From positions 1-46,052 of IMG/VR virus record IMGVR_UViG_3300017780_008441: 46,052 nucleotides of DNA. One strand, 5' to 3'. This stretch comes from a virus. Its lineage: Duplodnaviria; Caudoviricetes. The position numbers and the translations under genes were made by a program. Within the stretch, counting starts at the first letter, position 1. Each line of letters begins with the position of its first letter. This document shows positions 1,762-38,720 of this stretch, one piece after another. Below the pieces are notes generated by a model. The model was not told where the DNA came from. It did no database searches and was given only the letters and a program-made list of their open reading frames with translations.

Positions 1762-2796
1762 ATGAATACACAAGCCATTGAACAAGTCAAAAACGTCGTT
1801 AAAAGTCATCGCATTGTTCCTTTTACAACTCGCAATGTTGAAGCGCAAGGCAACAGTCTCATCATCAACAATGAATACCGTTTCAACAAAGTTGAAGACA
1901 TCATGAATACTCTGGGTATTCGTCACAACTTGTCCAACGAAATCATGCAGAACCCAACTGAAAATTGGAATACCATTCGTCAAGCATTGGACAGCATCAG
2001 TCAGCAGAAAAAGTTTGGCTGCATTGTTCGCGCTGATAATACAGTTGCTACACTCTGCAAAGATGCTCTCACTGTTGAACAGCTCAACTTTGACAAAGAC
2101 ATTGATAAACTTGCTGATGCCATCAACAGCAGCAACAATGAATTTCACAACATTTGGTTCAATGATGGCCGCTGTCAAGTCATTGTTGAAACATCTCATG
2201 CACATGATGTGCAATTGGGCGCAGGGGATGACTGGAAGTTTGGTACCAGCATCAACATTGGTCGTTCAGCCAATCAATTCAGCAACTTCTTTTTGCGTCT
2301 CATTTGTACCAATGGCATGACCACCAAAGAAGCTGTTGGTTATCGTCTCAATACCATTGGCGATGTTGGCAAGCAATATCTCAAATTCAGTGCCAATGAT
2401 GCTTTTGCGCGTGGCATCAAGCCTCGTGTTGATGCTCTCAAAGATGCGCGCGCCAGCTTTGCTGAGTTGCAAGCTGTAGCAAATGCGTTTGGTTCACAAG
2501 AAGATACATCTCGCGGCTTCAACTTGTTGCAAGAATTTCCACAATACACTGACACTGTTGCTGATTATGCTCGCAAAGGCATCAATCTCAACAAAGGCTT
2601 CAATGCCAATCAGAAGAAACTGGTTGCTACCAACCACAATTTGTATGACATCTTCAATGCTGCTACTGCTGCTGCAACTCACAAGCGCACTGTTGTAGGT
2701 GCAGGAGCTGCAATTAAGCTCAACAAAGTTGCATCTGATATGTTTGTCAAAGGTCCAAATCTCAACTTCAACATTGTTGATATTTACAAAAACTAG
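1762..2796 (+). CDS. DUF932/DUF945-like phage protein
   Basis: 344 aa; RLICTNGM matches the RLxCxNG motif typical of this family. Confidence 0.6.
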   Translation: MNTQAIEQVKNVVKSHRIVPFTTRNVEAQGNSLIINNEYRFNKVEDIMNTLGIRHNLSNEIMQNPTENWNTIRQALDSISQQKKFGCIVRADNTVATLCKDALTVEQLNFDKDIDKLADAINSSNNEFHNIWFNDGRCQVIVETSHAHDVQLGAGDDWKFGTSINIGRSANQFSNFFLRLICTNGMTTKEAVGYRLNTIGDVGKQYLKFSANDAFARGIKPRVDALKDARASFAELQAVANAFGSQEDTSRGFNLLQEFPQYTDTVADYARKGINLNKGFNANQKKLVATNHNLYDIFNAATAAATHKRTVVGAGAAIKLNKVASDMFVKGPNLNFNIVDIYKN

Positions 2797-2848
2797 TTGC
2801 AAACATTGGCTCAGGTGTTAAGTTATTGCAGAGCAAACAAAAGCTCAT

Positions 2849-2861
2849 TGATCTTTGAAAA
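2849..2861 (+). promoter_or_regulatory. boxA-like antitermination element upstream of the ncRNA/tRNA block
   Basis: TGATCTTTGAAAA resembles rRNA-leader boxA; a weak sigma70-like TTGCAA-N16-TAAGTT lies at 2797-2824. Confidence 0.45.
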
Positions 2862-3260
2862 ATTCCGTGGTGGCAGAACAATGGACAGCCAGTCCATAAT
2901 GCACTATGCAACGTCTGTAAAGACGCCAAGTAGGTTGAGTATGTTGTGCCGGATAAAGCTGAAATAGCCAAGATTGGCCTAATCTTGGTGACGTAAGAAG
3001 ACAACAAATCGTAATCATAACTGATGGCTGTATTGTCTTGAAGGTAACCATTCCTTTGCATCATTAACAGTGAGAGTAATTGACTCACTGGATGCTGGCT
3101 GAATAATCCGACGCAATTGTAGACTTGTGAGTAGTCAGGAATCTCACCCACACTAATTTGCAATGTAAACGCGTAATATGGTAACGCGAAGATGCCTGGA
3201 CGACTAGTCATAATACCTTTGAGCAGTCTCTTCACATTGCATTAATTTCGGCCACCAATT
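2861..3260 (+). ncRNA. Large structured ncRNA, probably a compact ROOL-like RNA
   Basis: Closing helix 2868-2878/3247-3257; hairpins 2881-2897, 2912-2925 (GTAA tetraloop), 2968-2988, 2998-3039, 3068-3090, 3127-3147, 3170-3188; long-range pairs 2950-2954/3106-3110 and 3159-3166/3234-3241; crossing pairs 3041-3046/3214-3219 and 3121-3125/3225-3229; no + strand ORF. Confidence 0.75.
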
Positions 3261-3356
3261 CTGTATGCCGTTGCTGAATAGGCGTTCTAGAAAATACAGA
3301 ATACGTTTGTAGGAGTCGTCGAAACCGTCAGTCATTTTTCTCGCAAGAGATAGAAA
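3258..3356 (+). other. Structured leader (stem-loop plus GCAA-tetraloop hairpin) ahead of the 71-aa ORF
   Basis: ATTCTGTAT(3258-3266)/ATACAGAAT(3294-3302) stem; TCTC-GCAA-GAGA hairpin at 3339-3350. Confidence 0.45.
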
Positions 3357-3372
3357 GGAAACAAACACACAC

Positions 3373-3588
3373 ATGAACAAAAATGCATACGAAGTTAGAC
3401 TAGATGTTCTTGGTATGGCACATAACGCTATTATGAATCAATACCACGAAAAGATAAGCGCACATCGCGATAATGCAGTTCGTAGCAGTGAACCGTTTAA
3501 AGTTGAGCTCATCAATGAGCTCAAACCAAAAACACAAGACATCATTGCTTATGCAGACGAATTGTACGCATTCGTAGAAGGCAGATAG
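3373..3588 (+). CDS. Small conserved T4-like phage protein
   Basis: MNKNAYEVRLDVLGMA...PKTQDIIAYADELYAFV resembles the YEIRLxLLxMA...PxxxdIixxAxxLxxFV small proteins of large myoviruses (from recall). Confidence 0.75.
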   Translation: MNKNAYEVRLDVLGMAHNAIMNQYHEKISAHRDNAVRSSEPFKVELINELKPKTQDIIAYADELYAFVEGR

Positions 3589-3637: not shown

Positions 3638-3733
3638 GCTCCAGTAGCTCAATTGGCAGAGCGGAAAGCTTATACCTTTCGTATGGCCTAGATTGGGCCG
3701 CGGTTGTCGGTTCGAACCCGGCCTGGAGTACCA
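3638..3733 (+). tRNA. tRNA-Ile(TAT) with a long (25 nt) variable arm
   Basis: GCTCCAG/CTGGAGT-A-CCA acceptor, GCTC/GAGC D stem, GAAAG/CTTTC anticodon stem with loop CT-TAT-AC, GGCCTA-GAT-TGGGCC extra arm, GTCGG-TTCGAAC-CCGGC T arm. Confidence 0.85.
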
Positions 3734-3736
3734 AAT

Positions 3737-3809
3737 GGCCAAGTGACGGAACGGTATACGTATCGGTCTCAAAAACCGAGTTGTGTGGGTTCGAATCCCA
3801 CCTTGGCTA
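3737..3809 (+). tRNA. tRNA-Leu(CAA) with a short variable loop, no encoded CCA
   Basis: GGCCAAG/CTTGGCT-A acceptor, TCGGT/ACCGA anticodon stem with loop CT-CAA-AA, 5-nt variable loop GTTGT, GTGGG-TTCGAAT-CCCAC T arm. Confidence 0.85.
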
Positions 3810-3921
3810 GAACTAGAATGTCACAATACTTCCACGTAGTCTAGTTTGGACAACTTAATGTTGACTAAATTTGTGATAATGTTAAGATATTTTTGAGATG
3901 TTTCTATCTTAAAATATCTCT

Positions 3922-9092: not shown

Positions 9093-9668
9093 ATGCTTAA
9101 TAATAACACACCGTTGGGCGCATCAGAAGATTCTGACAGCGAATTTCTGAGAGTGGTTGACAACAACGTTTGGTTTTACAGTGACATTGATTTTGAGCCA
9201 TGTTTGGCCCTCAATGTTGAATTGAGGAAGTTGGACAAGCAGTTGTCATCAGCACATTCTGGTGTTGGTACACCCACCATCAACTTGCGCATCAACTCCT
9301 TTGGTGGTTCAGTGCTTGCAGCATTTGCAGTCATTGATACCATCAGGGATCTCAAATGCAATGTTCACTCCATTGTAGAAGGCAGTGCAGCCAGTGCTGC
9401 AACGCTCATTTCTTGCATGTGCAAACAACGCAGCATGGGCAAATTTTCATTCATGTTGATTCATCAATTGAGTGCTGAAGCAGGTGGCAAAATGGTGGAG
9501 ATGGAAGATGACATCAAGAATGCTCGTCAGTTCATGGAAGTCATTCGCAACATCTACAAAAAATACAGCAAAATCAACACCAAGAAAATTGATGAGATTC
9601 TGAAAAGTGACATTTGGTTGAGTGCTGACCAGTGCCTGGAATATGGTTTGGTGGATGCCATCATTTAA
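9093..9668 (+). CDS. clpP: ClpP-like protease subunit
   Basis: INSFGGSV, GSAASAAT (catalytic Ser), MLIHQ (His), DIWLSADQCLEYGLVD (Asp). Confidence 0.85.
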   Translation: MLNNNTPLGASEDSDSEFLRVVDNNVWFYSDIDFEPCLALNVELRKLDKQLSSAHSGVGTPTINLRINSFGGSVLAAFAVIDTIRDLKCNVHSIVEGSAASAATLISCMCKQRSMGKFSFMLIHQLSAEAGGKMVEMEDDIKNARQFMEVIRNIYKKYSKINTKKIDEILKSDIWLSADQCLEYGLVDAII

Positions 9669-15213: not shown

Positions 15214-16128
15214 ATGGCACTACAACAACTAGACAACAGCAACATCAACGTTCATCTGGGCAAATCCTCAGAATATAAATCACAATATGATGCATCATTA
15301 TTAGTGAGAGAACCACGCAGCAACAATCGCAAACATCTCAACATTCAAGATGATGCATTGCCATTTTATGGCAATGATACATGGAATGCTTATGAAGTAT
15401 CTGCTCTTACCAACAGTGGAGTTCCTGTTGTTGGCATTGGTAAAATTGTATATCCTTGCTCCAGCAAATACATTGTTGAATCCAAGTCATTGAAGCTCTA
15501 CTTCAACTCATTCAATATGACCAAGCTGGGTGCAACTCAGGAAGAAGTTCGTCAAAAGATTGCAGATCTTGCACAAAAAGATCTTGGTGAACTCTTGGAG
15601 ACTGAAGTGCAAGTAGCAATTCATTCCAATGCAGATGTTGTTGCAGATCAGAGCAACATTTATGATGAATATTTTGATGAAAGTACTGTTACCCTTGAAG
15701 ATGAATACAATCCAGGTAAAGTAACAGTTTATCAAGAGACGCCAGGGCTTCTTGAAGTGCAAGACATTGATGCACCAACATCATTTAAATATCATAGTGC
15801 ATTGCTCAAGAGCAATTGTCGCGTAACTTCTCAGCCAGACTGGGGTGATGTATTCATTCATTACAAAGGCAACAAAACAGCTACACCTGAATCGCTTTTG
15901 AAATACATCATCTCATTCCGTGATGAATGTCACTTTCATGAAGAAATTTGTGAAACTCTTTACAAGAGGCTCAGTGATGCTCTTGTGCCACAAGAATTGA
16001 GTGTATTTTGTTTGTATGCTCGTCGTGGTGGCATTGACATCAATCCAGAGAGAGTTTCCAGTGAGACATTGTTGCATGGTGCACTGAGCAACACTGAATA
16101 CAGTCACATCAAGATGCCCAAGCAATAG
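15214..16128 (+). CDS. queF: NADPH-dependent 7-cyano-7-deazaguanine reductase, bimodular type
   Basis: DTWNAYEVS, VESKSLKLYFNSF (QueF motif), KSNCRVTSQPDWG, FHEEICE, YARRGGIDINP. Confidence 0.93.
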   Translation: MALQQLDNSNINVHLGKSSEYKSQYDASLLVREPRSNNRKHLNIQDDALPFYGNDTWNAYEVSALTNSGVPVVGIGKIVYPCSSKYIVESKSLKLYFNSFNMTKLGATQEEVRQKIADLAQKDLGELLETEVQVAIHSNADVVADQSNIYDEYFDESTVTLEDEYNPGKVTVYQETPGLLEVQDIDAPTSFKYHSALLKSNCRVTSQPDWGDVFIHYKGNKTATPESLLKYIISFRDECHFHEEICETLYKRLSDALVPQELSVFCLYARRGGIDINPERVSSETLLHGALSNTEYSHIKMPKQ

Positions 16129-16193: not shown

Positions 16194-16222
16194 TTGATTG
16201 TTCATGGGAAACAATGTAATGT
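16194..16222 (+). promoter_or_regulatory. Sigma70-like promoter candidate for uvsE
   Basis: TTGATT-N17-TAATGT immediately after the terminator, 5 nt before ATG 16228. Confidence 0.4.
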
Positions 16223-16227
16223 ATTGT

Positions 16228-17160
16228 ATGATGAATTACGATTTAGGACTGTGTTGCATGTCACTGATGCTCAAAGAAAGAGACATAAATTTTCAAACTA
16301 TGACTTACACTCAGTTTGTCAAACTGCCGCGACAACAAGCCATGCAGACATTGAGCAAACGCATTCAAAACAATTTCAATGTTGTTGCTGCCACTGTGCA
16401 TCACTGTGCAGCATTGGGCATCAAAAGGTACAGACTTTCATCTGATTTGATACCAGTCATCAATCATCCTGATGTTCAACTCAGCATTGATGATTTTGCA
16501 GATGCTCAAGACATTTACAACAGCATCAATGTTGCCAAGCAAGCCATCAAAAGCACCAACATGAGGACCAGTTCACATCCTCCAGAGTTCATTTCATTGA
16601 CCAGTGACAATGAGCGAATCATTGCCAACAGCATTCGTGATTTGGAGATGCATGCACTGGTGTTCAAATTGCTGCAATTGCCTGAATCTCATGAATCACC
16701 TTTCAACATTCATGTTCGCAAACAAGGTGATGCACAACAACTTGCAGATGTATTTCTTGCCAACTTGGACAAATGTTCTGATGCTGTCAAAAAGCGACTG
16801 GTATTAGAAGTCAATGACAATAAAAATGGATTGTGGACCATCAGCAATTTATACAAATACTTTTACAAGGCTGCAAATATTCCGGTGACATATGATACTT
16901 TGCACCATACCATGATAAGAGATGCAATGCCTCATGCAGAAGCATTTGAAATGGCTCACTCAACTTGGCCATGCAGGCCTGTTTTTCATTACAGTGAAGG
17001 CATCAATGGCACCAGGTCACATGCTGATTATGCAACAGGCTTGCCAGTGGATTATGGCAAGCCTGTGGATTATGAAGTAGAATTAAAAGCCAAAGACTTG
17101 GCCATTATGCCAATGCTTAAACGTATCCAAGCAACAACAAGCGTCGGGTACGCGGACTAA
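16228..17160 (+). CDS. uvsE: UV-damage endonuclease UvsE/UVDE
   Basis: LGLCC, YRLSSDLIP, RTSSHP, NIHV, RLVLEVND, TYDTLHH, FHYSE, RSHADY, EVELKAKDLA. Confidence 0.9.
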   Translation: MMNYDLGLCCMSLMLKERDINFQTMTYTQFVKLPRQQAMQTLSKRIQNNFNVVAATVHHCAALGIKRYRLSSDLIPVINHPDVQLSIDDFADAQDIYNSINVAKQAIKSTNMRTSSHPPEFISLTSDNERIIANSIRDLEMHALVFKLLQLPESHESPFNIHVRKQGDAQQLADVFLANLDKCSDAVKKRLVLEVNDNKNGLWTISNLYKYFYKAANIPVTYDTLHHTMIRDAMPHAEAFEMAHSTWPCRPVFHYSEGINGTRSHADYATGLPVDYGKPVDYEVELKAKDLAIMPMLKRIQATTSVGYAD

Positions 17161-32638: not shown

Positions 32639-33877
32639 TTAGGCCAGCAAAGCAGAAACTGGCTTGCCTTTGTCAGCAAGTTTGAATGGTCTGCCTTGTG
32701 GCGAAATGACTACATCATCTACAGGCAATGCTGCAGCAGCTGCAATGGTAGCATTGAAGTCTGCAGGTGAAACAATGTTCTCTGATGCTTTCATGCCTTT
32801 GTCATCAGACTTGCCATATGCTTGACCACCCTTGATGCCAGCACCAATGAGTACACCACAAAATGCTCCAGGATGATGGTCACGTCCATCATTGATGTTG
32901 ATGTCAGGAGTACGACCAAAGTCAGTGGCAATGACAATGAGAGTCTTGTTGAGCAATCCACTGGACTGCAGATCATTGATGAGTGCATTCAATGCTTGAT
33001 CCAAAATGGTCAATTTGGTTTCAAGAGATTCAAAGTTGTTGACATGTGTATCCCAACCACCATCAGACACTTCAATGAATTTGCATGCACCTTTTTCAAT
33101 GAGACGTTTTGCTAAACAACAGCCCTGTCCAAATCTGTTGTTGCCATATTTTTCTCTGGCTGCTGCATCTTCTTTGGACAAATCAAATACATCCAATTCA
33201 TTGCTGTTGAGCAAACGAATGGTTTGATCATAAAACTCTGCATAGCTCTTTTGCAATGGGTTGATTATTTTGTTGGCATCTTTTTCAAGCTGATCAAGAA
33301 TAGATACACGCTTGGAAAATTCAGATGTATTTTTGAGCTTGGTATTATCCAATCCTTTGATGGGATCAGCAATGGGAATAGGAGAATACTTTTTAGGCAT
33401 CCAACCTGCACCAGGATGATCTGCTGCACCAGAAATCAAAACATTTTCTGGAATGACTTTTTCCTTGCCATTGTCAGTAAGCTTGCACATCCATGCTCCC
33501 AAGTTTGGATGCACAATGGTGCCAATTTTCTTGAATGATGTTCTTTGCATGTATTGTGCACCAGCATGGTCACCAGTAGTAACCATCATGCTGCGAACAA
33601 CTGCCATTTTGTCTCCATGCTTGGCAAGCTTGGGCAAGTGTTCAGAGATTTGATATCCTGCATTGGTAGTAATGGCATTGAATTTGCCTTTGACTTGAGC
33701 ATCAGTCTTGGGATCAAATGTATCCAAGTGACTCATGCCTCCATTCATAAACAAGTAGATGATGTGCTCTGCTTTGCTGGCTGTTGCAGGAGCAGCAGCA
33801 ATGTTGGGCAGAACAGTTACACCCAATCCTGCAGAAGCAAGGTTGAGCACAAAGTTGCGGCGTGTTAATGTATGCAT
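32639..33877 (-). CDS. DUF1501 family protein with a Tat signal peptide
   Basis: TRRNFV signal, IYLFMNGGMSHLDTFDPK, ISEHLPKLA, YGNNRFGQGCCLAKRLIE, GWDTH, TDFGRTP, GRDHHP, GAGIKGG. Confidence 0.92.
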   Translation of the reverse strand: MHTLTRRNFVLNLASAGLGVTVLPNIAAAPATASKAEHIIYLFMNGGMSHLDTFDPKTDAQVKGKFNAITTNAGYQISEHLPKLAKHGDKMAVVRSMMVTTGDHAGAQYMQRTSFKKIGTIVHPNLGAWMCKLTDNGKEKVIPENVLISGAADHPGAGWMPKKYSPIPIADPIKGLDNTKLKNTSEFSKRVSILDQLEKDANKIINPLQKSYAEFYDQTIRLLNSNELDVFDLSKEDAAAREKYGNNRFGQGCCLAKRLIEKGACKFIEVSDGGWDTHVNNFESLETKLTILDQALNALINDLQSSGLLNKTLIVIATDFGRTPDININDGRDHHPGAFCGVLIGAGIKGGQAYGKSDDKGMKASENIVSPADFNATIAAAAALPVDDVVISPQGRPFKLADKGKPVSALLA

Positions 33878-33881
33878 ATTG

Positions 33882-35660
33882 TTATTTATTAAATTTAAAT
33901 TCTGAACTGTTGACCAATGCCCAGATGATGTCATCATCTTGACAGCCTGTGAAGTTTGCCTTTTCAGCTATGCTGGGCTTGCGTGACAAAACTGATTTGA
34001 AAATTATGTCAATGGTTTCATTTGGCGATTTGCCAGCAACGTTTTTTGCCAATTGTGTATCTTTGTTGACTGCTATGTCTGCAAGCTGTCCATTCATGAA
34101 AGATATAACTTGTGTCACGCTGCCTTCTTGGCTGCTGGAATCAATGAGCTCTCTGTCTCCTCTGCCCAGTTGCTCCAAAATGGTGTTGACATTGCTGGCA
34201 TCATTGACTTCTGATGCACGTATTAAAGCATAGTTTTTGTATTTTGGTGCTGCATCATACTTGCTCTTGATTGTCTTTTGGTAATCATCATACTTGGTGC
34301 GAATGGTGTCCAAAGTTACATCAGCAGGCTGCACTTGCATGATGCCAGCATATGCATCATGAAATGTTAGTTTGAAGCTTTCTGGAGATGCAACAGCAAT
34401 TGCAATGACTGAATCCCAAATCTGCTCTGCACTCAATCTGTGTTTCACTGGACCAATGAATACAAACTTGGATGAATCAGCATTTGCACCATCATACAAT
34501 TGTCTTTGAAACAATTTGGTGTTGTACAATGCATACAAAAATTGTTTGCTGTCATAATTCACTTTGATCATGACATCAGCCAACACATTCAACAACTCAC
34601 TGTCCAACATTGCACTGTCATGAATGTTGTCATACTCATCAATGATGCATTTGCCAAACACCCATTTCCAATATCTGTTGACAATGTTTTTGGTGAATGT
34701 TGGATGCTGTGAATTTACCATCCATGCAACTGCATCTTTGCGCATGTCATCTTTGTTTTTGATTTGTGTTTTGCCGCTCAATACAATGGGCTCAACTGCA
34801 TCATAAGGCTTTGCATCTTTGTACTGATAGTCATGTGGCAATTTGAGTTGCTTGTTGGGCTCAATGGTTAAATCAGAACGCATGGCTCTGACGAAATTGT
34901 TGACTTGATTGTTGAGACCTCTGTTCTTCACAGGATCAGCTTTGATGAGTTCATCCACTTGTTGTCTCAGCATCTTTGATTTCTCATTGAATTCTTTGTT
35001 GTCTCTGCTGCGCAACTCCACTTGATTGAACAATGCAGCCATTCCATAAAATTGTTTTTGTGTAAAATCTTGAAATGGATCATCATGACACTGTGCGCAT
35101 CCAATATCAGTGCCCAAAAATACTTTGCTGGTGGCAATGAGATTGTCCATGGGCATTCCCAAGTCTCTGTAATAATAACCTACAGCAGGATTGGCAAAGT
35201 AGTTGCCACTGGACAACAGCAAATTAGAAACAAACTCATTGTATGGCTTGTTGGCTGCAATTTGATCCTTGATGTAATCAACATAAAGTGCCCCATGAAA
35301 ATTATTGACTTGATTGAGCTTGTCTCTGAGTCTCAATGACTCTGCCCAAAAATTGAACATGTGTGAAATGTGTCCAGGATGCTTGGTCAAATACAGAATA
35401 AGACTGCTGCGTTTGTTGGCATCAGCAACTTTGTTGAACATTTGATGCTCTTCATATGTTGGATTGCGACCAATGATGCTGAGATATGCTCTGCGTACAA
35501 ATGCATCATCATCTATTCTTGCATTGGGAGTTACTTGCAGCTGTGCATATTGTTTTTGTAAGACAGCATCAATGCTGTTGCTGAATTGGTTGAGTTGCTC
35601 AACTGTTGATCCAAAAGCAAATGAGCATACGCACAACAACATGGTGATAAATTTTTTCAT
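33882..35660 (-). CDS. DUF1549/DUF1553 (PSCyt2/PSD1) protein with a Sec signal and CxxCH
   Basis: MKKFITMLLCVCSFAFG signal; DDAFVRRAYLSIIGRNPT; FLGTDIGCAQCHDDPF; FTKNIVNRYWKWVFG; RLSAEQIWDS; DIIWALVNSSEF; TATAAATA at 35669-35676. Confidence 0.92.
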   Translation of the reverse strand: MKKFITMLLCVCSFAFGSTVEQLNQFSNSIDAVLQKQYAQLQVTPNARIDDDAFVRRAYLSIIGRNPTYEEHQMFNKVADANKRSSLILYLTKHPGHISHMFNFWAESLRLRDKLNQVNNFHGALYVDYIKDQIAANKPYNEFVSNLLLSSGNYFANPAVGYYYRDLGMPMDNLIATSKVFLGTDIGCAQCHDDPFQDFTQKQFYGMAALFNQVELRSRDNKEFNEKSKMLRQQVDELIKADPVKNRGLNNQVNNFVRAMRSDLTIEPNKQLKLPHDYQYKDAKPYDAVEPIVLSGKTQIKNKDDMRKDAVAWMVNSQHPTFTKNIVNRYWKWVFGKCIIDEYDNIHDSAMLDSELLNVLADVMIKVNYDSKQFLYALYNTKLFQRQLYDGANADSSKFVFIGPVKHRLSAEQIWDSVIAIAVASPESFKLTFHDAYAGIMQVQPADVTLDTIRTKYDDYQKTIKSKYDAAPKYKNYALIRASEVNDASNVNTILEQLGRGDRELIDSSSQEGSVTQVISFMNGQLADIAVNKDTQLAKNVAGKSPNETIDIIFKSVLSRKPSIAEKANFTGCQDDDIIWALVNSSEFKFNK

Positions 35661-35772
35661 ATCTTGTGTATTTATAATATACAGCAATTTATACCAGTGC
35701 GCCCCCTTTTTTAAATTTCAAAGAACTACTATACAATACGCTATTTAATGACCAATGCAACTAAATACAATT

Positions 35773-36129
35773 ATGAGCAAAGATTGTGATAACATTTTTT
35801 TATTGTATGAGCAAACAAAGCAACAAAGTGCATTTGCTGAATTTGCAGAAAAGCGCGGAGCAGGAGCTGCAAAGATTGCCAAGAATGCAAAAGAAAAAGG
35901 TGGTGTAGCAATGTTGACATATCATCATTTCAATGTCAAGAAGCCACATTATGACAAAGCTGCAGCTGGCAAATTTAATGTTGATGATGCAAAGAAAGAA
36001 CTCAAAAAGCTGACCAAGCATCTTGATGATGCTGTGGATGGCAAAGTAAAATTTGAGCAAATTGACTTTCAGAAAAAAGTTGGGCTCATTGAAGTATTGG
36101 GTGAGTTGCTTATAAAACTACAAGCCTAA
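35773..36129 (+). CDS. Hypothetical late protein
   Basis: Likely start MSKDCDNIFLLYEQ behind TAAATA at 35762-35767. Confidence 0.75.
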   Translation: MSKDCDNIFLLYEQTKQQSAFAEFAEKRGAGAAKIAKNAKEKGGVAMLTYHHFNVKKPHYDKAAAGKFNVDDAKKELKKLTKHLDDAVDGKVKFEQIDFQKKVGLIEVLGELLIKLQA

Positions 36130-36144
36130 CAAGGCAGCTGTGTC

Positions 36145-36585
36145 ATGGTCAAGATATTAATTTGTGGGCGCAGTGGCAGTGGCAAAAGCTTTCTTGCAAA
36201 TTACTTGAAACAGTCTTTTGAGTTTGTGCATTTCAATGGTGATGCAGTCAGAGCATCAACTGGCAACAAAGACTTTACCATGCATGGACGAATTCAACAA
36301 GCACAAGTGATGCATCAGTTGGCTGCAAATTGCAACAGCTGCATTGTTGTGTGTGATTTTATTTGTCCAACAAAACAATTGAGAAGCATCTTTGCGCCAG
36401 ACATCATAATTTATTGTGCACACAATGGCTCTGGAAAATATCAAGATACAGATTCATTGTTTCAACCAGTACAAACATCAGAAGCAGCAAATGTTTTTTT
36501 GTTTGAAAGAGGCAATGAAGAAGATTTAGTGTTAAAATTAATGCATGCCATTGCAAACAAATTAAGCCAACAACTATCTCACTAA
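36145..36585 (+). CDS. Adenylylsulfate-kinase (CysC)-like P-loop kinase
   Basis: GRSGSGKS, FNGDAVR, DFTMHGRIQQA, VVCDFICPT. Confidence 0.75.
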   Translation: MVKILICGRSGSGKSFLANYLKQSFEFVHFNGDAVRASTGNKDFTMHGRIQQAQVMHQLAANCNSCIVVCDFICPTKQLRSIFAPDIIIYCAHNGSGKYQDTDSLFQPVQTSEAANVFLFERGNEEDLVLKLMHAIANKLSQQLSH

Positions 36586-36613
36586 ACAAGTTACATAAAT
36601 ATAAATAAACAAT

Positions 36614-36940
36614 ATGCCACAACCACTTCCAAACAACAACGGTAGCACTTACTTCAACAGAAACATCTGTCGCTCGTTTAATCAACCACTTAGTACAAAT
36701 TTAGTTGCGCTATCTTCTCAAATTTGTGCAGAGTTAATCATTTACAACAAAACAGGTCAAGATGTGCAGGTGTTTGACAGCGACTATTTTAATAGCAGCA
36801 ATGCATTTGTATTGAGCAACAACGATAGTTTTGTGGTTAGAGGCATCACCAACAGTGCACAAGTGAGTGCTAAAACAACAACAGGCAGTGGTCTCATTTA
36901 CTACCGCACACAATATTTCTCAAGCAGCATTGCATTATAA
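36614..36940 (+). CDS. Hypothetical virion protein (beta-rich)
   Basis: 108 aa; TATAAATA at 36600-36607. Confidence 0.75.
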   Translation: MPQPLPNNNGSTYFNRNICRSFNQPLSTNLVALSSQICAELIIYNKTGQDVQVFDSDYFNSSNAFVLSNNDSFVVRGITNSAQVSAKTTTGSGLIYYRTQYFSSSIAL

Positions 36941-37332
36941 TGACTATTGGTGATTATGGATCTTATATTTCTACTGCAGGCTGCAGCATCGGCGGCTTTG
37001 GTGGCAGTGTAAATGGCGCTGGTGCTCCTACTTTAATCGACGCTGTATTTGCGTCAGGTGCTGGCACTGCAGAGGTAAATGGATTATATATACCTGACGG
37101 CACGACAGGAGGCAGGACGAGATACACTAATGCACTCACTGGAGTTTCATTTGCGTGGAATGGTGAAGAGTATCGAATCGGAGCTAGTGGTGGTATGGGT
37201 GATCTTTATTACGGTTCTGATAATATAGCTGGCGCGCCTAATAGTGATCCGTGGGATGGAATATATATAACTAATGGAGACGGCGCAGATCCACCTCCAA
37301 CTGTTCGCCAAGCAACAAGTGCTGACAGTTGA
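36940..37332 (+). CDS. Gly-rich hypothetical protein (possible fibre/decoration domain)
   Basis: 130 aa; SGAGTAEVNGLY segment; CpG-rich composition unlike its neighbours. Confidence 0.7.
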   Translation: MTIGDYGSYISTAGCSIGGFGGSVNGAGAPTLIDAVFASGAGTAEVNGLYIPDGTTGGRTRYTNALTGVSFAWNGEEYRIGASGGMGDLYYGSDNIAGAPNSDPWDGIYITNGDGADPPPTVRQATSADS

Positions 37333-37463
37333 TAAATCAATATCAGAATTTATTTGTTGTATAAGATTACTTCAAAGTTAATCCAGTAGCTTCACCTTCC
37401 TCACCCAAATAGCAGCTCTTAATTTCTGTTAGTGCAGAATGCAAGATGGGTCTGGTTATCTAC

Positions 37464-38720
37464 TCAAGCAATGATTTGCTCAATGGGTTGAGCTTCATAG
37501 ACAATTTCTACAGGTCGCATGTCAGGAGTCATGAGCCTTTTCCTAGGATCAATGCCCATGAGATGAAACATTGTAGCAGCCAACTGAGCTGGGGAAACTG
37601 GATCCGTTTCCGGTTCCGCTGCCAATGCATCACTGGTTCCATATGCAAAACCAGCCTTGGTTCCGCCTCCTGCCAACACAGTGGAAAACACACGTGGCCA
37701 GTGATCACGACCATTGGTGCCATTGATTTTAGGAGTTCTGCCAAATTCTGATGTAATCATAACCAATGTTGAATCCAGCAATCCTCTTTGTTTCAAATCA
37801 GTGATGAGCATTGCATATGCTTTATCAAAGTTGATCATGTTGGTTTCAAATGCGCTTTTGAGATTGCTGTGATGATCCCAACCACCATAAGTCACTGTCA
37901 CCATGCGTACACCTGCTTCCACCAGTCGGCGAGACAACAACAATCTTTGGCCAGCAGCATTTCTGCCATATGCATCACGCATCACATCAGTCTCTTTGCT
38001 CAATTCAAATGCTTCTCGTGCTTGTGTTGATGATAGCATGCTGTATGCATCATTGTAAAATGAGTCCATGGCCTTAACAGCATCCACATGTGATTCCTTG
38101 GTTTTGAAATAATCATCCACTGCTCCCAGCAATGATTTGCGGCGGCTCAACATTTCATCTGTTGAACCAGCAGGGGCGTTCAAGTCCTTTACGGAGAACG
38201 ATGGATCCTCTGGGTTTGCCCCCGTGGCAAATGGTCCGTAACGTGTTGATAGATATCCTGTGCCGTTCTCAGGAGCAAATTGATTTGGCACCAATACATA
38301 TGCTGGCAAATTGTTTCTGTTGCCCAATTGATGATTGATGACTGTACCAAAAGAAGGATATGCAAGTGCAGGAGAAGGTTTGTATCCTGTAAGCATATTA
38401 TGTACACCCCGTTCATGAGCTGCTTCACCATGAGTCATACTTCTAATGATGGTTAAATTGTCACTGATGTTGGCTGTGTTTTGCAGCAATGCACCAAAAT
38501 GTACATCAGCAATTTTGGTCTTGATGCCTGCAAATGGTCCACGATATTCAGTAGAACCATAAGGTTTGTAATCCCATGCATCTTGATGTGCAATGCCTCC
38601 AGGCAAGAAAATCTGAATTACAGAAGTTGCTTTGGCTTTTGTTGCTTGCTGACTGCGCAGCATAGTTGGCAATGAGATGCCAGCTGCTGCACCAATGCGG
38701 AGAATTTCTCTTCGGTTCAT
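37464..38720 (-). CDS. Second DUF1501 family protein with a Tat signal peptide
   Basis: MNRREILR signal, IFLPGGIAHQDAWDYKP, AHERG, YGRNAAGQRLLLSRRLVEAGVR, GWDHH, SEFGRTPKIN, GRDHWP, LAGGG. Confidence 0.92.
   Translation of the reverse strand: MNRREILRIGAAAGISLPTMLRSQQATKAKATSVIQIFLPGGIAHQDAWDYKPYGSTEYRGPFAGIKTKIADVHFGALLQNTANISDNLTIIRSMTHGEAAHERGVHNMLTGYKPSPALAYPSFGTVINHQLGNRNNLPAYVLVPNQFAPENGTGYLSTRYGPFATGANPEDPSFSVKDLNAPAGSTDEMLSRRKSLLGAVDDYFKTKESHVDAVKAMDSFYNDAYSMLSSTQAREAFELSKETDVMRDAYGRNAAGQRLLLSRRLVEAGVRMVTVTYGGWDHHSNLKSAFETNMINFDKAYAMLITDLKQRGLLDSTLVMITSEFGRTPKINGTNGRDHWPRVFSTVLAGGGTKAGFAYGTSDALAAEPETDPVSPAQLAATMFHLMGIDPRKRLMTPDMRPVEIVYEAQPIEQIIA

Follow-up and report, generated by a model that had tools for sequence, protein, structure and literature searches.

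To our knowledge, the RNA-only cages formed by ROOL, GOLLD and manA RNAs were solved only in 2025-2026, and none of them has a known job. ROOL RNAs are about 581 nt long and contain six multistem junctions as well as three pseudoknots, according to the available text of PMC5737381. manA RNA forms 8-, 10- and 60-mers via the contacts L5-L7', L8-L9' and L3-L8', as given in the accessible part of a preprint (bioRxiv 10.64898/2026.07.01.735769); there, L8-L9' and L3-L8' are between-chain contacts in the cryo-EM structures, and L5-L7' is used by both structures described. For OLE and GOLLD, neighbouring loop bases that covary (GGCC to GAUC or AGCU) support intermolecular contacts, according to the available part of PMC12286853.

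The window analysed here, 46,052 nt in full, is a 46-kb piece of a T4-like phage genome with an estimated completeness of 22%. The first-pass annotation had flagged positions 2861-3260, between a 344-aa ORF (1762-2796) and a 71-aa ORF (3373-3588), as an ornate RNA of roughly 400 nt resembling a minimised ROOL RNA in a T4-like phage. The phage type is confirmed by the Gp23 capsid and Gp20 portal proteins encoded in the window, together with a prohead protease and a ribonucleotide reductase. The association with tRNAs holds as well, with two tRNA genes lying 480-660 nt downstream; at gathering scores, these two tRNAs are the only Rfam matches in the whole window. Our preferred reading, which we consider reasonably probable, is that 2867-3151 is a conserved folded ncRNA gene of large T4-like phages, an enlarged relative of manA that would form an oligomer via kissing loops, possibly a cage. 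The features of the locus are as follows.

2849-2861, + strand: boxA-like word just upstream of the RNA, with a small hairpin (2831-2846) before it
2867-3151, + strand: ncRNA gene, 285 nt (57-sequence alignment A2, pair counts, RNA contigs, same-strand tRNAs)
2867-2870/3148-3151, + strand: P1 closing helix, 77% of cells paired, poorly aligned end
2873-2902, + strand: P2, manA-type module with a GAAYA/AA internal loop and loop L2 at its tip; covariation, match to manA positions ~18-60
2888-2891, + strand: PK1, L2 strand pairing with 3025-3028; 96.5% of cells paired, two-sided change in 4/4 pairs
2904-2933, + strand: P3, variable stem with a GNRA tetraloop (2917-2920), U-GNAA-A in 54/57 homologs; stem 67.5% paired, poorly aligned
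2937-3124, + strand: P4 domain, a long helix and a junction bearing P5-P8; covariation
2967-2989, + strand: P5; palindromic loop 2976-2979 (GGCC) as a predicted symmetric kissing loop between copies
2998-3039, + strand: P6, likely counterpart of manA P8; covariation, alignment to manA
3040-3057, + strand: P7 hairpin, P9-like, with a manA-L7-like loop (AACCA/AAUCA); covariation
3058-3095, + strand: P8 with palindromic loop 3078-3081 (AAUU; elsewhere AGCU, GAUC, CAUG, ACGU), predicted second kissing loop
3127-3147, + strand: P9, terminal hairpin of manA type, whose loop 3135-3138 forms PK2 with 3021-3024; 97.8% of cells paired
3159-3241, + strand: mobile small-RNA-like insert, 83 nt, with an 8-bp terminal helix, separate from the main RNA
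3249-3337, + strand: third conserved non-coding element, ~90 nt, in the close clade only, no Rfam match
3638-3733, + strand: tRNA-Ile(UAU), same tRNA cluster, after the 71-aa ORF
3736-3810, + strand: tRNA-Leu(CAA), same tRNA cluster

The tRNA with anticodon UAU is 96 nt long, has a long variable arm and is seen again in close relatives; an isoleucine tRNA with UAU that reads AUA directly is unusual in bacteria. Other genes of the window include QueF (15214-16128), UvdE (16198-17160) and a Clp-protease-like gene (9093-9668). Two DUF1501 genes and one DUF1549/DUF1553 gene are situated amid the T4-like structural genes (32639-38720). DUF1501 and DUF1549/1553 are linked to PVC bacteria; a literature search on this link found no paper, and a PVC host, called probable in the first-pass annotation, is no more than plausible.

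In the phage collection, blastn found homologs of the RNA in 15 records of Lak megaphages and in two of 735-kb phages, and a pattern search with the central motif gave 39 viral and 78 metagenome loci. Of these 78 metagenome loci, 77 gave a profile match; one of the 77, L190, is the sequence of the window itself. An independent 3' motif yielded 22 loci, 20 of them on contigs already found, with no clearly divergent core. With eight partial matches dropped, 81 distinct full-length sequences formed 57 groups at 95% identity and 34 at 80%; the mean identity among homologs is about 64% (27-sequence subset). The 57 sequences were aligned with MAFFT (alignment A2), the window standing for its 95% neighbour L038. 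Because homologs were fetched by the central motif, its invariance is partly built in. The similarity begins near 2866 and ends near 3152, and the family members are 282-330 nt long, with a median of 290. The 400-nt stretch therefore comprises the 285-nt RNA, followed by a mobile insert and by the beginning of a third element, and the length of about 400 nt first proposed shrinks to a conserved unit at 2867-3151.

Among the matches listed for bacterial genome contigs, from 63 of 64 parts of the collection, 117 of 120 pattern matches had no significant profile match and three were real: the contig of L080 carries Gp23, the bin of L101 has Gp23 on another contig and the bin of L176 has none. These three copies are probably binned phage DNA, which is unproven for L176. 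Plasmids gave 23-nt chance matches only, and cultured phages gave no real match beyond the Lak and 735-kb records. Gp23 is present in 12 of the 21 carrier records searched and in all four near-complete carriers. The RNA family has no entry in Rfam 15, and no description of it was found in the literature searched, including the available text of PMC9964418, PMC7162821, PMC10832533 and 10.1101/2020.02.04.933952. The phage RNA catalogue PMC10690425 gives, in its available text, candidates of 29-151 nt only, and its supplementary files 1, 2 and 4 may include fragments of this RNA. The existence of a real, uncatalogued phage RNA family is well supported.

The flanks fetched with the homologs contain a tRNA or tmRNA gene at 44 of the 57 loci (within 500 nt at 38), and it lies on the strand of the RNA in all 44. 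The RNA is assigned to the + strand because of this uniform orientation. In several loci (e.g., L257, L259, L219, L199, L101), tRNA genes are located within 2-31 nt on both sides. A tmRNA begins 25 nt past the RNA in L203:981-1323, and a permuted tmRNA belongs to the same array in L257:521-785.

Seven of 16 runs listed were analysed, X1-X6 and X15. RNA contigs were found in six lake or freshwater runs (X1-X6, perhaps three campaigns), all within 2875-3149 (2875-3118, 2880-3148, 2876-3113, 2880-3112, 2882-3110 and 2970-3149) and four without mismatch; assembled contigs of this kind, which come without a same-sample DNA control, attest presence only and say nothing of ends, strand and level. X4 has the RNA as the sole piece covered across 20 kb, and the contigs of X2 and X6 also include the 71-aa ORF. 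Run X15, of unknown kind, shows patchy cover (21 of 30 bins). The insert 3159-3241 is not among the RNA contigs and none extends over 3159-3345, which is a weak hint because contigs drop parts.

Upstream of the RNA, the boxA-like pattern occurs in 13 of 55 homologs, mostly of one clade, and in 0 of 55 on the opposite strand; the word is likely an antitermination signal of the rRNA-operon type. A promoter and terminator scan around the RNA stayed at chance level, with no terminator-like site nearby. A short conserved element ending in a P7-like hairpin is found upstream of the RNA in L196, L201, L214, L221 and L021, in some of them with a GGUGGUG word like manA L5 before it. Downstream, the RNA is followed directly by the ORF in L015, directly by the third element in L012, L039, L045, L216 and L249, and by different inserts of ~80-110 nt in L017, L029, L030, L032 and L038. 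The third element is present in L012, L017, L023, L029, L030, L032, L038, L039, L045, L216 and L249; its pattern returned 10 contigs already known and one chance match, and its 5' end could pair with 3314-3318. Close relatives lack the insert of the window or have another in its place. A single further copy was found (L191:686-772, 87%, with compensatory changes), where another insert stands between it and the core, and a pattern search for the 83-nt insert gave 13 chance matches. Both copies keep the inner hairpin via compensatory changes and carry an 8-nt palindrome in the same place with different letters, possibly as another self-pairing small RNA. The inserts right after the RNA (L017, L029, L030, L032, L191, L038) feature acceptor-like terminal stems and CCA-like 3' ends; as a side reading, they may be a small-RNA cassette swapped at one tRNA-operon site.

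The element at 2867-3151 is almost certainly a structured ncRNA. The main evidence is covariation among homologs, a check proposed with the first-pass annotation, and it bears out the non-coding structured RNA that had been placed in 2861-3260. Unbiased column covariation on the MAFFT alignment recovers the helices directly. For 77 named pairs in 57 sequences, 93.3% of cells are paired and two-sided changes occur in 61 of the 77 pairs. The covariation score is 0.66 versus 0.21 in shuffled alignments and 0.10-0.14 with slid partners; the latter control is generous because pairs were chosen on the same alignment, and the tree co-change test is stricter. The MFE fold of the isolated core is nearly identical to the covariation structure. 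Folding energy alone proves little, since the minus strand of 2861-3260 is equally stable (z=-3.1 versus z=-2.9).

P1 closes a junction of P2, P3 with its GNRA loop, the P4 domain and P9, so the many hairpins and the GNRA loop described from the sequence at first stand. P2, with the covarying pairs 2873-2875/2900-2902 and 2881-2885/2893-2897, is paired in 98% of cells, and two-sided change was counted in 3/3 pairs; P1, P3 and the outer part of P4 are less well aligned (67-82% paired). Within P4, the AA/GAAUA module occurs for a second time, in inverted form (2951-2961/3096-3109). The unpaired residues of the central junction (2988-2999, 3005-3011) are invariant in 57/57 sequences, which is partly imposed by the search.

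Both long-range pairings use one 8-nt strand, 3021-3028, which is the 3' internal strand of P6. In the tree test, PK1 shows 5, 4 and 7 same-branch co-changes in three columns (null 0.3-1.4). PK2 has two-sided change in two of its four pairs, the other two being invariant, with 5 and 2 same-branch co-changes; the null means for PK1 and PK2 together span 0.1-1.5. PK1 and PK2 could form within or between chains, the covariation being compatible with either. None of the candidate partners of the P7 loop covaries with it, and pairing reaches 69% of sequences at most.

Other elements of the fold proposed at first do not survive the alignment. The helix that was to close the stretch end to end (2869-2874/3251-3256) has a 5' arm already used by P1 and P2, and a 3' arm that is part of another element and variable among close relatives. 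Two pseudoknots (AAGGTA/TACCTT and AGACT/AGTCT) had been suggested; their 3' arms (3214, 3225) sit in the separate insert, and AAGGTA is the 5' arm of the covarying hairpin 3040-3044/3053-3057. All the motifs and helix arms listed are indeed found in the window sequence. Perfect 5- and 6-bp complements commonly arise by chance, and in the 400 nt they number 94 and 27 versus shuffled means of 82 and 21. The proposed crossing helices were rejected, as was the end-to-end helix. Nor is the region free of ORFs, as had been stated, since an antisense 155-codon ORF (2768-3235) crosses it, though it is not conserved. As a gene, this ORF was rejected: the minus frame is stop-free across the RNA in 3 of 57 homologs only.

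A strict 4-nt palindrome makes up the P5 loop in 49 of the 57 sequences (GGCC 28, GUAC 12, GCGC 8, GAUC 1), against a mean of 22 and a maximum of 33 in column shuffles. Counting G-U, it is self-complementary in 56 of 57, where seven need G-U and one sequence is not self-complementary. The two adjacent middle bases co-change on 13 branches, 12 of which keep complementarity (null 2.8). The P8 loop holds a 4-nt palindrome in 55 of 57 sequences, where shuffling within the loop gives an expectation of 25.7. The tree test is less strong for this loop (3 same-branch changes, p=0.017) because the palindrome register shifts. The other five loops contain palindromes in 0-17 of 57 sequences, at or below expectation. 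Since adjacent bases cannot pair within one chain, the palindromic loops are read as copy-to-copy contacts. The RNA copies are predicted, with good probability, to self-associate as homo-oligomers; a closed cage is quite conceivable as the form of the oligomer, with our judgement leaning slightly against it. Heterotypic L5-L8 pairing was rejected, there being no co-change between the two loops.

In the comparison with ROOL (RF03087, membership cut-off 99.1 bits), the covariance model gave no match at E<=10 in the window, nor at E<=1 in 19 homolog loci or 14 carrier records. The positive control, the L. salivarius pMP118 region located from the available text of PMC5643018, scored 111.2 bits in the same scan as the homolog loci. 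In the reverse direction, model R1 of the RNA family, built from 2945-3156 only (the 3' ~215 nt of the RNA), had no match to ROOL RNA. The GOLLD model (RF02032) likewise found no match on the RNA in the window, the homolog loci or the 14 carrier records, so that of the two models suggested at first for a cmsearch, neither matches; OLE gave no match in the window or the homolog loci. Where ROOL has its six junctions and three pseudoknots, the RNA has 285 nt, two junctions and two long-range pairings. Proximity to tRNAs is common to both (44/57 loci here), but it is not diagnostic because GOLLD and manA also have it. The series of ordered ROOL-like motifs, on which the first-pass annotation had relied, has a small real basis. 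The ROOL consensus carries the AA/GAAUA internal-loop module (auaAAagcA ... UGgcuGAAUA) and the UUGAaG word, and the module probably explains the resemblance to ROOL that was proposed. Most of the motifs are unconserved within the family: five of them are kept in 0, 3, 20, 5 and 1 of 56 homologs, the last motif lies outside the core, and GUGACGUAA is present in 56/56 by construction of the homolog search. We regard membership of the RNA in ROOL as extremely improbable. Elsewhere in the record of L019, a 553-kb phage whose RNA copy groups with the Lak copies, a GOLLD-like sub-threshold match was seen away from the RNA (G006:C1:370164-370526, 67.8 bits, E=4e-18).

The manA model (RF01745, cut-off 55.2 bits) gave the single permissive-filter Rfam match in 2750-3400 (19.8 bits, E=0.0077). 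It matches 10 of 19 homolog loci, the best at 28.4 bits, below the cut-off. At E<=1 in the 14 carrier records (157-735 kb), the sole manA matches fall on this RNA in 13 of 14; none of the 14 records has a match above the cut-off, and 14 control genomes have none at all. Conversely, R1 matches the manA 3' end in 19 of 19 manA loci at 8.6-20 bits, chance loci reaching at most 7.6; these manA loci were fetched by motif, and 12 of 12 tested pass the Rfam cut-off. A manA profile detects 6 of 57 family members at E<0.05 versus 0 in each of 20 shuffled sets. The annotated manA of S-CREM1 also lies between tRNAs, and its 5' and 3' ends closely resemble those of the RNA. The manA module UGaCUGAAUAA...UAAgG and the terminal P9 hairpin are present, the module twice. 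The L8-L9 and L3-L8 complementarities of manA have counterparts in PK2 and PK1, which covary in the RNA family; among 76 manA sequences, covariation is seen at one L8-L9 pair, and the complement on the L3 side does not vary. Loops counted in the Rfam structure suggest that PK1 corresponds to L3-L8' and PK2 to L8-L9'. The manA P4 junction with L5 (GUGGUG) and L7 (ACCA) is absent, the L7-like P7 loop having no partner, and the length of 282-330 nt departs from the ~190 nt of manA.

The manA model often matches the RNA in two pieces, which, together with the duplicated 5' module and the P9-like P7, makes an internal duplication likely. Two short modules, the GAAUA loop and P9, account for most of the matching, and modules may thus be shared without common descent of the whole RNA. 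As the only manA matches in 13 of 14 carrier records fall on the RNA, always below the cut-off, the most fitting description of the RNA is an enlarged, uncatalogued relative of manA; its descent from manA is likely. It fails manA membership but, by analogy, may work like manA. The fallback offered with the ROOL proposal, a new large ncRNA class, is right in that the RNA is large, uncatalogued and may oligomerise, and wrong in that a known relative, manA, exists.

Under the preferred reading, the RNA would be made from its own promoter or a boxA-type leader, or within a tRNA operon, and could be released by the processing of flanking tRNAs. Each palindromic loop would pair with the same loop of another copy, creating two two-fold contacts, and PK1 and PK2, as counterparts of manA L3-L8' and L8-L9', may join copies head to tail. 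With up to four contacts per chain, a closed shell or a defined oligomer would be more likely than a plain dimer. More speculatively, an abundant stable particle might serve in infection as a scaffold or as a decoy for defence proteins of the host that bind or cleave RNA. A cage of new geometry, which combines manA-type head-to-tail and OLE/GOLLD-type palindromic contacts, arose by internal duplication and belongs to one manA-ROOL superfamily, is a tentative and rather doubtful extension. If true, the AA/GAAUA module would link manA (190 nt) and ROOL (580 nt) in a graded superfamily of phage cage RNAs, with Lak megaphages and the 735-kb phage among its carriers. The RNA family is found across large phages of widely differing kinds, among them every one of the 15 Lak records matched in the phage collection, and its sequences give a directly testable contact prediction: two palindrome-switching loops and two covarying kissing pairs. 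Given the same-strand tRNA and tmRNA neighbours and the RNA contigs limited to the core, the gene is read as stand-alone, which argues that manA-type RNAs are stand-alone tRNA-operon genes and not riboswitches.

The sub-threshold manA scores, and P3, P5, P8 and a central junction without manA counterparts, would also suit a ~290-nt RNA class of independent origin that has small modules in common with manA and ROOL and its own dimer or oligomer plan; the ROOL consensus has the same internal-loop module, and no L5-L7-type partner was found. We consider this origin unlikely, however, for the manA order is kept (5' module, P8-like stem with two kissing strands, P9), the two long-range pairings are the same as those inferred for manA, and the close resemblance of both ends to the verified S-CREM1 manA is joined by reciprocal model matches. 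Unpaired junction residues that never vary in the 57 sequences, the lack of a clearly divergent core among the 22 loci of the independent 3' pattern and the tRNA-operon setting could instead point to a functional RNA that works as a monomer or dimer (a ribozyme, or an RNA that binds tRNA or protein), active through the junction at 2988-2999 and 3005-3011, with palindromes that dimerise it at most. That account appears improbable: the search itself accounts for part of the junction invariance, none of the known ribozyme models of Rfam matches in the window or the homolog loci, and two palindromic loops with manA-type contacts suggest more than one interface.

manA itself was first described as a riboswitch candidate in 5' UTRs, according to the available text of PMC2864571, and in L015 the same small ORF directly follows the RNA, as would be expected of a cis-regulatory element or riboswitch for a downstream gene such as ORF 3373-3588. 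In many homologs, however, tRNA genes stand flush on both sides and leave no gene to control, and in the window two other elements lie between the RNA and the ORF, with no terminator-like site, which makes such a role highly improbable. The 400-nt minimised ROOL RNA of the first-pass annotation had in its favour the AA/GAAUA module, the UUGAAG word and the setting in a phage near tRNAs. We give it next to no credence, as no ROOL match appears where the control reaches 111 bits, ROOL RNA is not picked up by the family model, the 3' 110 nt belong to separate elements and the RNA contigs stop by 3149.

The enlarged manA relative that we favour can be placed among the described systems as follows. 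The palindrome-switching loops of OLE L9.3 and GOLLD L21a, which the available text on these RNAs presents as a sign of symmetric intermolecular kissing, resemble the loops found here; this likeness to GOLLD and OLE is limited to a possible working mode, with no model match. ROOL shares the association with phages and tRNAs, the AA/GAAUA module and RNA-only assembly, which is predicted for the present RNA, and the kissing loops predicted here recall the self-pairing loop bridge (B6) noted for ROOL in the text available. ROOL is an octameric RNA-only nanocage. The RNA described here is half as long, and the models match in neither direction. From manA, the RNA differs in its length of ~290 versus ~190 nt, in scores of at most 28 bits against the 55-bit cut-off, in the doubling of the 5' module and the presence of a P9-like P7, and in the location of the P8-like stem inside a new junction. 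The two palindromic loops are absent from manA, the GUGGUG/ACCA (L5-L7) contact occurs in manA only, and the carriers of the RNA include Lak and other non-cyanobacterial large phages. In common with manA, it has the closing helix, the 5' GAAUA/AA module with a kissing loop, the GNRA hairpin, the stem whose 3' strand gives two kissing strands, a terminal hairpin of the form UUG-stem-GUA...AAUC, and a place in a tRNA cluster of a T4-like phage, as in S-CREM1.
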